Part shown: piece by piece, positions 3,827-62,756 of the stretch
Layout: every line of letters starts with the position of its first letter
Numbering within the stretch: the first letter of the stretch is position 1
Assembly (NCBI GenBank): GCA_016839555.1
Contig: JAEOUA010000012.1
Span: 224,001 to 288,000, forward strand
DNA from: Promethearchaeota archaeon
Lineage (GTDB): Archaea > Asgardarchaeota > Lokiarchaeia > Sigyniarchaeales > SOKP01
Length of the DNA: 64,000 bases
Reading direction: 5' to 3'
Position numbers and translations under genes: made by a program
Notes under the pieces: generated by a model
Database searches by the model: none
What the model saw: the letters and a program-made list of their open reading frames with translations, nothing else
What the model was told of the DNA's origin: nothing

Positions 3827-4462
3827 TTATTTCATTTTTTCTAATATTAAAAAAATTTTTCGTTTTTTAGGATTATTCGGATTATCTATTACATAACCAC
3901 CATTAAAATCTATTTGTGAATTAATTAGAGCTTTCATTTTATCCATCAATTTGAAATTTTTTGGATAAAAGTGAAAGACAATTTTGCAGTTAAATTTTAA
4001 AATACTATAAAACGATGAAATTAACTCAATAAAATCATTTTCCATCGTTTTATCTGAAATATCTCTATAAATCCATTGTAGAGCAGAGATAGAAATGATT
4101 CCATTAAACATTTCAGGTTTAAATGGAGATCTACACATATCTGCAACAACAGGATTGATATCCTTCATTTCATAATAGTATAAAAATTGAGATATAATAT
4201 CTAAAGCAACTACTTTATAACCCAATTCTTTTATAAAAAATGAAGCAAATCCAGGGCCACATCCGGCATCTAATAATAAAGAAGATTTTTGGTTAATATC
4301 CAATAATTGTAAAGCTCTTATAGTAATTTTAGTTTGAATTCTCTGCATATTTTTGGAGAGTGAATAGTCTTCAATTCTTTCGGCTGTAAAATAATCACTC
4401 ATATTTTTGTAGAGATCTTCTGGTCTTTCCTTTTTTACATCAAATAAGAATTCATCGTTCAT
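3827..4462 (-). CDS. Bud23/WBSCR22-like SSU rRNA m7G methyltransferase (class I SAM-dependent)
   Basis: RPE near N-terminus, IQTKITIRALQLL, LLDAGCGPG, PFKPEMFNGIISISALQW, FHFYPKN and FNGGYVIDNPNNPKKRKIFLIL match yeast Bud23 motifs in the same order. Confidence 0.8.
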   Translation of the reverse strand: MNDEFLFDVKKERPEDLYKNMSDYFTAERIEDYSLSKNMQRIQTKITIRALQLLDINQKSSLLLDAGCGPGFASFFIKELGYKVVALDIISQFLYYYEMKDINPVVADMCRSPFKPEMFNGIISISALQWIYRDISDKTMENDFIELISSFYSILKFNCKIVFHFYPKNFKLMDKMKALINSQIDFNGGYVIDNPNNPKKRKIFLILEKMK

Positions 4463-4594
4463 CCTATTACTATTAAAAATTTAGAATTTTATTGGAATTG
4501 TTTTTAAAATAGATCAAAAATTTTATTATTTTTAATTATTTACTATTAATAAGAGTATAGCATAGAATTTATATATTTAAAGGTATGTATCACT

Positions 4595-4894
4595 GTGTCC
4601 GAAAAAGAAGATAAGGTTTTATTCCGCAAGGATACTCTCAATTTAAGGAGAAAATATGGAAGATCTCAGCGAATAGATGTTATAGAGCGAGATGCTTTTA
4701 TCCCTAAGGGGTTAGAAGAAGAAATTAAAAAGGATATTCTAAATCGAAAAGCCATATTAGCAACGGATATAGCAATTAAATACGATGTGCGAGTCTCTAC
4801 GGTTAAAAAATTATTGGAAAAATATGAGAAAGAAGGAATCATTCAATTACATGATCCATCCTTAAAAATAAATATATATGTCCCTATTTCTTAG
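4595..4894 (+). CDS. rps25e: 30S ribosomal protein eS25 (S25e)
   Basis: Winged helix EEIKKDILNRKAILATDIAIKYDVRVSTVKKLLEKYEKEGII...IY; 99 aa, basic; GTG start. Confidence 0.75.
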   Translation: MSEKEDKVLFRKDTLNLRRKYGRSQRIDVIERDAFIPKGLEEEIKKDILNRKAILATDIAIKYDVRVSTVKKLLEKYEKEGIIQLHDPSLKINIYVPIS

Positions 4895-5148: not shown

Positions 5149-6084
5149 TTATTGAACTATTTGTGAGATGATAGTTTCCATTTTTGGCTTAGCTGCTTCA
5201 ATTTCATCTAATAACCTAACCGTTTCTTCCAAATTTTCCTCATTTTCTTCAATAATAAAAAGCAAATAAAAATGAAGCATCCCAAAGGTTAAAACCTCAA
5301 TTACGCCCGAAAATCTACTCCCCTCTCTAAATTTATCTGAAAATTCATATAACGAAAGGTTTTCTGATAAGATTCTCTTCTGCAGATGTAAATATCTATC
5401 ATAGATTTTCATTTTTTCATCCAATCGAAGATTAGGTCTCGTATATTCTCCCACCGTAAATCCATTTGAATCATATAAACTAATCAAGACTACATTATAT
5501 TTTTTACTGATTTCATTAAATAATTGAGTTATCATTTCCATTTTATCAAAAAGTAAAGCTAGTCCACTGGAAAAAGCATCCATCACGGATTTTAGATCAT
5601 AAATGCTCGTTTCGAAGAAAAAAAGATCATAATCGGGAGAAAATTTCATCAATGTCTGCCTAAGTGTAAGTGCTTTTTGATTAAGATAATCATTGTTAAT
5701 GAGATCTGGGTCGAATTTATGGAATAATATCGCAACCGGCGGATATTCTCTAATTTCTTTAAAAAAAAGTAGTACTTCTTCTAAATAATCTATTGATTCA
5801 AGGTATCTATCTGGATCTTGAATATCTACTACATAAAAAATTAAGTCTGTACCACCTATATATTTTCCAAGATTATCTAAATACTCTCTTCTATATTCCA
5901 ATTGACCACCAAAATCCATTCTTATGAATTTTATTCCCAAAAATCCAAAAGTATCTCTGCTAACTCTTCGTGTTGGTAAAATTTCTTTTAGTTCTTCTTC
6001 AAATCCGAATTTCTTAGTTATCGCAGTAATAATACTTGTCTTTCCTGCATTATCTAGACCTAAAAAAGCAATTTTTCTCGGCAT
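5149..6084 (-). CDS. Rag/Gtr-like small GTPase with C-terminal roadblock/longin-like domain
   Basis: G1 GLDNAGKT, G2 PT, G3 DFGGQ, G4 FHKFD, G5 FFETSIYD (HKxD and TSI are Rag-type); about 130-aa C-terminal alpha/beta domain. Confidence 0.75.
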   Translation of the reverse strand: MPRKIAFLGLDNAGKTSIITAITKKFGFEEELKEILPTRRVSRDTFGFLGIKFIRMDFGGQLEYRREYLDNLGKYIGGTDLIFYVVDIQDPDRYLESIDYLEEVLLFFKEIREYPPVAILFHKFDPDLINNDYLNQKALTLRQTLMKFSPDYDLFFFETSIYDLKSVMDAFSSGLALLFDKMEMITQLFNEISKKYNVVLISLYDSNGFTVGEYTRPNLRLDEKMKIYDRYLHLQKRILSENLSLYEFSDKFREGSRFSGVIEVLTFGMLHFYLLFIIEENEENLEETVRLLDEIEAAKPKMETIISQIVQ

Positions 6085-6223: not shown

Positions 6224-7453
6224 TTATTTTATAATAATTATTTCTTGATTCTTAAGTGCAGTTGAAATTAAATCTTTAATTTTTAATTGTAAGGAATTAT
6301 ACAATTTTATTACTGTTTCCCATTCAAATTCTTGTTTTTTCGGTTTATACTTGCAATAATCTGAATCATAGAGATTATCTGATATTTTTTTCAGCAATTT
6401 CTTAATTTCATCTAATTCCAACCCAATTAAAGGAGTAAAAAGGGGTAAATTTACATAATTATAACTGGCTGCAATTGTATTTAGATCAATTTCCTCGGGA
6501 CAAAAATTATTATTATTAAAATTTAAACCGTCTGTTATGGCTTTAGACTTTTCAATTCCAGTGATATTTTGGGTATTAAGTAGTTTAGAAATAATTTCAA
6601 ATCGCATTAAGCGACAAATCGCACATAAATATTTTTCTTCTTTTGATAAATCTCTTATTGTATCAAGTATTTCAATAAGATTAATTTTTATTATTGTAAA
6701 TTTTGAAAAAGGAGTATAAGAAAAAACTTTTTTCCAATTTGCAATTCTTTTTTCCCATTCTCTATATTCATCTGTAATTTTAAACAAAACAGGATAAATT
6801 GTACATCCTCTTCTCATCATAAAAAAGGCTGCGAGGATATCATCTAATCTCCCAATTTCCATTACTATTAGTTTTTTATTGCTCTCTATTGGAAGTCCTT
6901 TCCATTTATTTTCAATTATTTCTGTAAAAATATAAGAAAATTGGTTTCTCACTTCTATAAAAATTTTTTTATCTGGATTCCCTAAATCAACCGTTAGATC
7001 TAAATCACTAAATTGATCTAAGATTATTTGCCCAACCTTTACTGCCACATCTTGGGAACTAAACTCATGTTTCCCCGAACGTTTCACTCGTAATGCAAAG
7101 CTGTCACCTTTTTGCAGAATTTTTTCAGCAACTTCTAAAGTTCTTTCCGAAATATTTTTTATTTTATTTGAAGTTCTTAATGCGGGACTTATTGAATAAA
7201 TTCCAAATACTTTCTTTAAAACATCAATTGCATTGGCGATGTCTTTGTTTTCGAAAAAGAAAAATATCCTTGCTGTATCTTTACTTATTTGATATTTGTG
7301 ATATGAAATATTTACTTTCCCTAACATACTTTTTATATTGTCTATTAGGGTATGTATCATTCGAAGCTTAATTTTAGTGGATTTTAACCAAATTTCATCA
7401 GTATAGCGAATAAGAATTAAATTATATATTGTTAAAATTTTATTATGTCCCAT
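6224..7453 (-). CDS. ThiI-like THUMP-domain protein with degenerate PP-loop
   Basis: LIRYTDEIWLKS, KVFGIYSISPA, SFALRVKRSGKHEFSSQD, VDLGNPDKKIFIEVR, GLP, FMMRRG, CAIC, PLFTPLIG; canonical SGGIDS replaced by EIGRLDD. Confidence 0.8.
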   Translation of the reverse strand: MGHNKILTIYNLILIRYTDEIWLKSTKIKLRMIHTLIDNIKSMLGKVNISYHKYQISKDTARIFFFFENKDIANAIDVLKKVFGIYSISPALRTSNKIKNISERTLEVAEKILQKGDSFALRVKRSGKHEFSSQDVAVKVGQIILDQFSDLDLTVDLGNPDKKIFIEVRNQFSYIFTEIIENKWKGLPIESNKKLIVMEIGRLDDILAAFFMMRRGCTIYPVLFKITDEYREWEKRIANWKKVFSYTPFSKFTIIKINLIEILDTIRDLSKEEKYLCAICRLMRFEIISKLLNTQNITGIEKSKAITDGLNFNNNNFCPEEIDLNTIAASYNYVNLPLFTPLIGLELDEIKKLLKKISDNLYDSDYCKYKPKKQEFEWETVIKLYNSLQLKIKDLISTALKNQEIIIIK

Positions 7454-62096: not shown

Positions 62097-62756
62097 ATGG
62101 AGGAAATAAAAATTAAAAAAAAAGAGCTTATTTCAATTGTCCAAAATACTAAAACCTATAAAAATCCAAAAGTTAAATTAGAACAATATACAATCGATGC
62201 ACTTTGTGCTGTTGATATAGTATTTTTTGCGGGTATAGAATTTAATGACATTCAAAACAAGTTAATTATTGATCTTGGAGCTGGTACAGGCAGATTATCA
62301 TTAAGCAGTGCTTTTTTACAACCAAATTATATTATTAGTATCGATTTAGATATTCAAGCTTTATATATATTGATAAAAAATGTAAAAGAATTACATTTAG
62401 AAAAATTAATCTTACCAATTTGTTGTGATGTGAAATCTATTCCCTTAGAAATACAGAATTTAAATAAGGAATATAAAATAACAACTATAATGAATCCTCC
62501 TTTTGGAGTCCAAAAAGCTAAGGCAGATCGTAGTTTTCTTAAATGTGCAATGAGCTTTTCTGATGTGATCTATTCTATCCATCTTACTAATAAGAAAGTT
62601 CAGAAATTTATTGAAAACTTTATTCGTAAATTTGGTTGGGAAATTGATTATATTTTACCATATACTATGATTTTAGAGAAGGCTTTTCCCTTTCATACAC
62701 AAAAAAGAAAACAAATCAAAGTAAACGTCTATAGGTTTATAAAAAGAGAATTTTAA
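62097..62756 (+). CDS. METTL5-family rRNA m6A methyltransferase
   Basis: PKVKLEQYT, DLGAGTGRL, IMNPPFG, ADRSFL, IYSIH, FHTQKRK. Confidence 0.9.
   Translation: MEEIKIKKKELISIVQNTKTYKNPKVKLEQYTIDALCAVDIVFFAGIEFNDIQNKLIIDLGAGTGRLSLSSAFLQPNYIISIDLDIQALYILIKNVKELHLEKLILPICCDVKSIPLEIQNLNKEYKITTIMNPPFGVQKAKADRSFLKCAMSFSDVIYSIHLTNKKVQKFIENFIRKFGWEIDYILPYTMILEKAFPFHTQKRKQIKVNVYRFIKREF

Follow-up and report, generated by a model that had tools for sequence, protein, structure and literature searches.

Bud23–Trm112/TRMT112 is the 18S rRNA (guanine1575/1639-N7)-methyltransferase, whose target is a P-site guanine. The crystal structure of yeast Bud23 was solved without the C-terminal extension, and in both yeast and human it is the Bud23 protein, not its methyltransferase activity, that is needed for ribosome biogenesis (PMC5372719). 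Homology to Bud23 therefore need not mean that the methyl mark itself is what selection maintains. According to reviews of the Trm112 network, Bud23 has no archaeal homologue, and in the archaeal 16S rRNAs so far analyzed, which include none from Asgard or DPANN archaea, m7G has not been reported at this position (PMC5372719, PMC6144793); this bears out the statement in the initial annotation of the locus described here that Bud23 is usually regarded as eukaryotic. Among the Trm112 clients of Haloferax volcanii, the authors found no Bud23 orthologue (PMC6144793), whereas the protein described here is Bud23-like; in its modeled complex it resembles Hvo_0019 and the other Trm112-dependent class I methyltransferases of that organism in using the beta-zipper binding mode (PMC6144793). 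In the literature searched, no paper joined "Bud23" with "Asgard" or "WBSCR22" with "Lokiarchaeota," and the ribosome-biogenesis papers PMC8997704 (with one supplement) and PMC8339473 make no mention of Bud23, Trm112, or m7G.

The window, by which we mean the whole 64,000-nt stretch of DNA that was analyzed, sits on a 382-kb contig of a 3.7-Mb, 92% complete assembly. Its DNA was found in marine-sediment and marsh metagenomes; the datasets listed as containing it were DNA metagenomes only, with no RNA dataset among them. The protein of interest, a 211-aa methyltransferase encoded near the start of the window, has the class I fold of yeast Bud23 and human BUD23/WBSCR22 and is ∼30% identical to them across the whole methyltransferase domain. 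In common with eukaryotic Bud23, it has the SAM motifs, Q43, and the SxSxxQW, YP, and F-x-G columns, and its genome holds a Trm112 partner gene. Unlike eukaryotic Bud23, it has no basic C-terminal extension (PF12589), its host is an archaeon, and its gene forms a pair with rps25e; Trm112, at 207 aa, also differs from its counterpart in the eukaryotic system in carrying a long insert.

Table 1. Positions of the features discussed. Plain numbers are positions in the window; L and G:C handles are ours for loci and for genomes and contigs.
Feature	Position	Strand	Remarks
Tail-less Bud23-family class I SAM-dependent methyltransferase	3827..4462	-	211-aa ORF, ATG start
Divergent intergenic spacer, 132 bp, AT-rich	4463..4594	.	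Separates the two start codons
Ribosomal protein eS25 (rps25e)	4595..4894	+	99-aa ORF, GTG start
METTL5 homologue	62097-62756	+	58 kb from the Bud23-like gene
Gtr1/RagA-type small GTPase	5149-6084	-	Just downstream of eS25; Pfam E 7e-22
ThiI-like protein	6224-7453	-	Ferredoxin-like, THUMP and PP-loop domains
Open-ended ORF, >1212 aa	1-3636	-	DUF2341 and PA14 domains; downstream of the methyltransferase gene; product probably a large surface protein
Trm112, 207 aa	L001:1375-1998 = G000:C5:452351-452971	-	Sole copy in the genome
Second Bud23-like paralogue, clade B	L039:4529-5197 = G000:C11:189540-190154	-	Window's own genome
Radical-SAM gene adjoining the clade B paralogue	L039:3392-4528	-	Same strand as the paralogue
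Partial 16S rRNA gene	G000:C5:603237-603905		Contig end

Sequence, fold, and Trm112 partner of the 211-aa protein

The 211-aa protein is a genuine member of the Bud23 family. The initial annotation had called it a Bud23 homologue from a set of colinear motifs, and all of these are present in the ORF in the order given: RIQTKITIRALQLL (residues 41-54), SISALQW (124-130), FYPKN (165-169), and FNGGYVIDNPNNPKKRKIFLIL (186-207). In a phmmer search of the PDB, yeast Bud23 was the best solved match (E 1.5e-23; residues 13-208 against 3-200), human BUD23 matched at E 3e-22, and the first five distinct sequences among the solved structures were Bud23 proteins; the best solved methyltransferase outside the family reached E 4.4e-8. 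Together with the fold comparison and the tree described below, this upholds the homology claim. Pfam, by itself, assigned generic methyltransferase domains only (Methyltransf_11, Methyltransf_25), and the best NCBIfam match was BioC (TIGR02072), at 44.9 bits against a cut-off of 184.95 and over residues 40-131 only. BioC, UbiE, and TehB share the Methyltransf_11/25 Rossmann core with the window protein, but they have neither the N-terminal helix motif of Bud23 nor its C-terminal F-x-GG..D.P..K block, and matches to them cover the SAM-binding half only.

A search of 1.84 billion library representatives gave 713 matches at E ≤ 1e-3, and 49 of the best 150 carry a eukaryote-type tail. Because PF12589 (WBS_methylT) was found in all 10 of the long homologues that we checked with Pfam, the longer library matches are taken to be eukaryotic Bud23. 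The window protein itself gave no Pfam match to PF12589 and stops where the methyltransferase domain ends, so the eukaryotic C-terminal tail is missing, just as had been noted. Some automatic JGI annotations of homologues read 18S rRNA (guanine1575-N7)-methyltransferase, from which it is clear that annotation pipelines detect the Bud23 likeness.

Column conservation was computed on 105 aligned homologues, and pocket residues were judged by conservation only. At 17 columns, conservation across the Asgard, DPANN, and eukaryotic members is 90% or more; the window protein keeps every one of them, G69, D88, Q43, SxSxxQW, and YP included. Motif I reads LDAGCGPG, with G69 aligned to yeast G57, and the acidic residue of motif II, D88, aligns with yeast D77; we take these two yeast residues to be the classic positions of SAM-binding mutants. 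The protein further matches the eukaryotic invariants at Q43, R49, S124, S126, Q129, W130, Y166, P167, F186, G188, and D193, and departs from them at H164 (for Q), C110 (for G), N120 (for D), and D185 (for G).

An AF2 model built from a 105-row alignment had a pLDDT of 95.5 and a pTM of 0.92. When this model was compared with solved structures by Foldseek, ranks 1-8 were all yeast and human Bud23 chains (E ∼1e-16), with a TM of up to 0.91 to the chains of 4QTU and 6G4W; generic methyltransferases followed at E 7e-10 and a TM of ∼0.55-0.65.

Trm112 is encoded by a single gene in the window's genome, and a Trm112 gene was present in 41 of the 41 relatives searched, always in the long form. In the window's genome, the ∼110-residue insert lies between the N- and C-terminal zinc-knuckle halves; it is conserved in 41/41 genomes of the order. 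Trm112 of the window's genus has four Cys (CPIC...CNEC), and most relatives have CPxDK. The modeled complex of the methyltransferase with this Asgard Trm112 scored 0.93 against 0.27 for the best control, where the mark that we used is reached by 58 of 80 solved complexes and by 2 of 110 mismatched pairs; since a like complex, 4QTU, was already solved, such a pass shows likeness, not binding. Contact agreement was 100% over three runs, with a partner pLDDT of at least 88. In the model, residues 103-108 and 111-116 of the methyltransferase meet residues 8-13 and 165-172 of Trm112, and this interface reproduces, on strand 3 of the methyltransferase, the beta-zipper geometry known from Trm112 complexes.

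The pairing with the eS25 gene

The 99-aa ORF that faces the methyltransferase gene matched Pfam Ribosomal_S25 at 29.7 bits against a cut-off of 28.8, and its N terminus, as read from the GTG start, is conserved among relatives. The protein begins MSEKEDK and is without the two N-terminal glycines described as strongly conserved in archaeal eS25 (PMC11698992). A Shine-Dalgarno-like GTGAT lies ∼5-10 nt upstream of the eS25 start in many relatives.

The head-to-head arrangement of the two genes is not peculiar to this contig. It recurred in all 30 loci of the window's family and, when genome contigs were scanned, in 52/52 Asgard-type loci; within the order, a sister family has the Bud23-like gene beside eS25 in three of three loci, and closed genomes of the order likewise have the two genes side by side. 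In 29 related loci, the equivalent spacer ranged from 99 to 163 bp, with a median of 145. The initial annotation had spoken of a shared 132-bp divergent promoter: the 132-bp spacer and the conserved divergent pairing are as described, and the promoter itself is an assignment made from the AT-richness of the spacer, which presumably holds both promoters. In the sister family (L032, L033, L034, and L172-L176), both Bud23-like paralogues lie in tandem and adjoin eS25, whereas in the window's family the two paralogues are on different contigs. As for where eS25 acts, its core sits on top of the head; the N-terminal tail extends to the P-site region in S. solfataricus, and in human ribosomes it touches the P-site tRNA (PMC11698992). 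Because eS25 sits in the head with its N-tail at the P site, the pairing would fit a role in the head shared by both products.

A METTL5 gene had been listed in the same annotation as a further Trm112 client. The homologue is real, with matches to human METTL5 (6h2u; E 1e-25) and to PH1948 of P. horikoshii (E 1.7e-34). It lies 58 kb from the methyltransferase gene, however, and a close homologue has been solved from Pyrococcus, so it provides no evidence of a module. Among the nearer neighbors, the GTPase gene was present in 14 of 30 short family loci (1.5-kb flanks), and the ThiI-like protein scored under the equivalog cut-off for tRNA 4-thiouridine synthase.

Spread and phylogeny of the family

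We searched 400 genomes of the Asgard phylum with a profile, counting as strong the matches above about 190 bits. The scores were two-peaked; the Bud23 family is therefore patchy within Asgard as sampled. Strong matches came from 130 of the 134 genomes in the window's family and from the order's three other families, from two of three genomes in another family of the window's class, from three of four genomes in a family of 1.4-Mb genomes, and from one further family. Matches from all other Asgard families were weak (E 1e-16 to 1e-27), at the level to be expected of unrelated methyltransferases.

Nor is the family specific to Asgard archaea. When one genome per species was scanned with an eight-row alignment of the sister subclade as query, the result was ∼28 loci, many of them from Micrarchaeota, Norongarragalinales, and Iainarchaeum (DPANN) and others labeled "archaeon." None of these ∼28 loci had eS25 within 4 kb. 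When five DPANN-type genomes carrying a Bud23-like gene were searched, none had an eS25 match over the cut-off, and three had a Trm112-domain match over it. These DPANN members belong to the window's own clade, so the eS25 link is specific to a lineage and not needed for function. The conserved neighbors at the DPANN loci (glucose-6-phosphate isomerase, an M24 peptidase, DUF192, and a HerA-like ATPase) give no functional hint because none is ribosome-related. The spread, which takes in the Loki class, an Odin-like family, one other Asgard family, and DPANN archaea, is patchy. The Trm112-domain matches in Micrarchaeota (G401:C7:197176-197316, G402:C6:323291-323422, and G404:C1:233822-233911) sit in open frames of 307-363 aa, and Trm112 may be fused to another domain there.

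In our careful tree (78 rows, 203 columns, LG+C20+F+G4), moderate support (84/92) separated the Bud23 family from eight further Methyltransf_11 proteins encoded in the same genome. Phmmer, Foldseek, and the tree group the protein with Bud23 and not with methyltransferases of the BioC/UbiE type, and its NCBIfam score for BioC is far under the cut-off. Eukaryotic Bud23 formed one clade (100/100); it belongs to a polytomy that also takes in at least three archaeal clades and a few small unplaced branches. The archaeal clades are (a) DPANN genes together with the Loki-type eS25-linked genes, the window's among them (95/81); (b) the second Asgard paralogues (98/87); and (c) the genes of the 1.4-Mb genomes. 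The same picture emerged from a quick tree (124 rows). Forcing the eukaryotic and the Loki-type eS25-linked genes into one clade cost 15.3 log-likelihood units and was not rejected (AU p 0.144). With this p value and the polytomy, descent of the eukaryotic gene from this Asgard lineage is neither shown nor excluded.

The second Bud23-like protein of the window's genome belongs to clade (b), which Table 1 lists as clade B. It is of the same superfamily and length class as the window protein, likewise has no tail, and lies inside the Bud23 clade. The two are ∼30-33% identical, and the paralogue differs in having QW replaced by NF and QFYP by EFYP, the window's clade being unchanged. In the window's genome, the paralogue gene is not flanked by eS25: a radical-SAM gene follows it directly, and no ribosomal protein gene is among its immediate neighbors.

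The initial annotation had gone on to propose an Asgard maturation module for the small-subunit head that is ancestral to the eukaryotic one. Membership of the Bud23 family and the pairing with eS25 stand; the ancestry part does not follow from a polytomy, from a clade that includes DPANN genes, or from a patchy distribution. The spread and the polytomy together caution against a simple Asgard-to-eukaryote inheritance. We offer only tentatively, as possible though doubtful, a broader scenario in which m7G made by Bud23–Trm112 predates eukaryotes. Loki-class and some DPANN archaea would carry the mark, and the eukaryotic enzyme would be a vertical descendant that gained its tail later for nucleolar pre-40S work. 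The rps25e/Bud23 pair would then be a co-regulated unit for maturation of the 30S head, linking eS25 loading to G1338 methylation.

Proposed function and its alternatives

We lean toward the reading that the 211-aa protein is a Trm112-paired enzyme of the Bud23 type that makes m7G at the G1338 equivalent and whose expression is coupled to that of rps25e, and we consider this probable. The family, the fold, the residues, the partner gene, and the synteny on which it builds are observed. In the mechanism that we propose, the protein would bind SAM and pair with the genome's Trm112 through a beta-zipper on strand 3. The Trm112-bound enzyme would then act late in the assembly of the 30S head, placing an N7-methyl group on a universally conserved guanine in 16S helix 29/42 (E. 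coli G1338, yeast G1575) that is in contact with the P-site tRNA, and the divergent pairing with rps25e would couple expression of the methyltransferase to production of a head protein. We infer that binding of Trm112 in the cell, an rRNA substrate methylated at this position, and co-regulation with eS25 are most likely. In the 16S rRNA of a closed genome of the same order, the target G lies within GGAAUCCCUAGUAAUCG, and in GGAAUCCCUAG the second G is E. coli 1338. The 16S rRNA gene of the window's own genome is assembled for its first ∼660 nt, at a contig end, and its 3' part is absent from the assembly. A complete but tail-less Bud23 with Trm112 in Loki-class Asgard archaea would, if true, be one more eukaryote-type ribosome-maturation factor in archaea, and the prediction of an N7-methyl group on one named 16S rRNA guanine is concrete and cheap to check in cultured strains.

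The protein could instead be a true Trm112-dependent methyltransferase of the Bud23 family that acts on a substrate other than the 16S G1338 equivalent, such as another rRNA guanine, a tRNA guanine, or a non-RNA substrate, with the eukaryotic specificity arising later; we regard this as rather unlikely. The family is split into at least four old archaeal clades, and one paralogue clade has changed pocket motifs (QW to NF and QFYP to EFYP), yet the window's clade keeps the eukaryote-invariant columns, SISALQW included, and the fold of the window protein matches Bud23 far better than other methyltransferases. Archaeal Trm112 does serve many methyltransferases with varied substrates (PMC6144793), and the reviews report no m7G at the site in the archaeal 16S rRNAs studied (PMC5372719, PMC6144793). 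Genomic context can be read both ways: the DPANN members of the window's clade are without eS25, whereas the conserved pairing with the gene of a small-subunit head protein in the Asgard-type loci points to the 30S head.

It is improbable, in our estimate, that the protein is mainly a structural factor in 30S assembly whose methylation is dispensable or lost. Such a role would have a eukaryotic precedent (PMC5372719) and could accommodate the few substitutions at eukaryote-invariant columns, for instance H164 and C110, but the SAM motifs (GCGPG, D88) are intact and the eukaryotic tail that extends beyond the methyltransferase domain is missing. We would argue that catalysis is under selection, because the SAM columns are at least 90% conserved in the 105 aligned homologues. 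Lastly, although Pfam finds generic domains only, BioC is the best NCBIfam match (44.9 bits), and one JGI homologue is labeled UbiE, we rejected as very improbable a generic small-molecule methyltransferase of the BioC/UbiE/TehB type that resembles Bud23 through the shared Rossmann fold, since the BioC match is far under its 185-bit cut-off and confined to residues 40-131, the alignment with Bud23 covers the full length, at an E 15 orders of magnitude lower than for other solved methyltransferases, and the protein falls with Bud23 in both the Foldseek comparison and the tree.

The homologue that JGI labels UbiE, a 412-aa metagenome protein (P0122), has two stretches that match the window protein, the better one being its residues 212-407, as if two Bud23-like domains had been fused.
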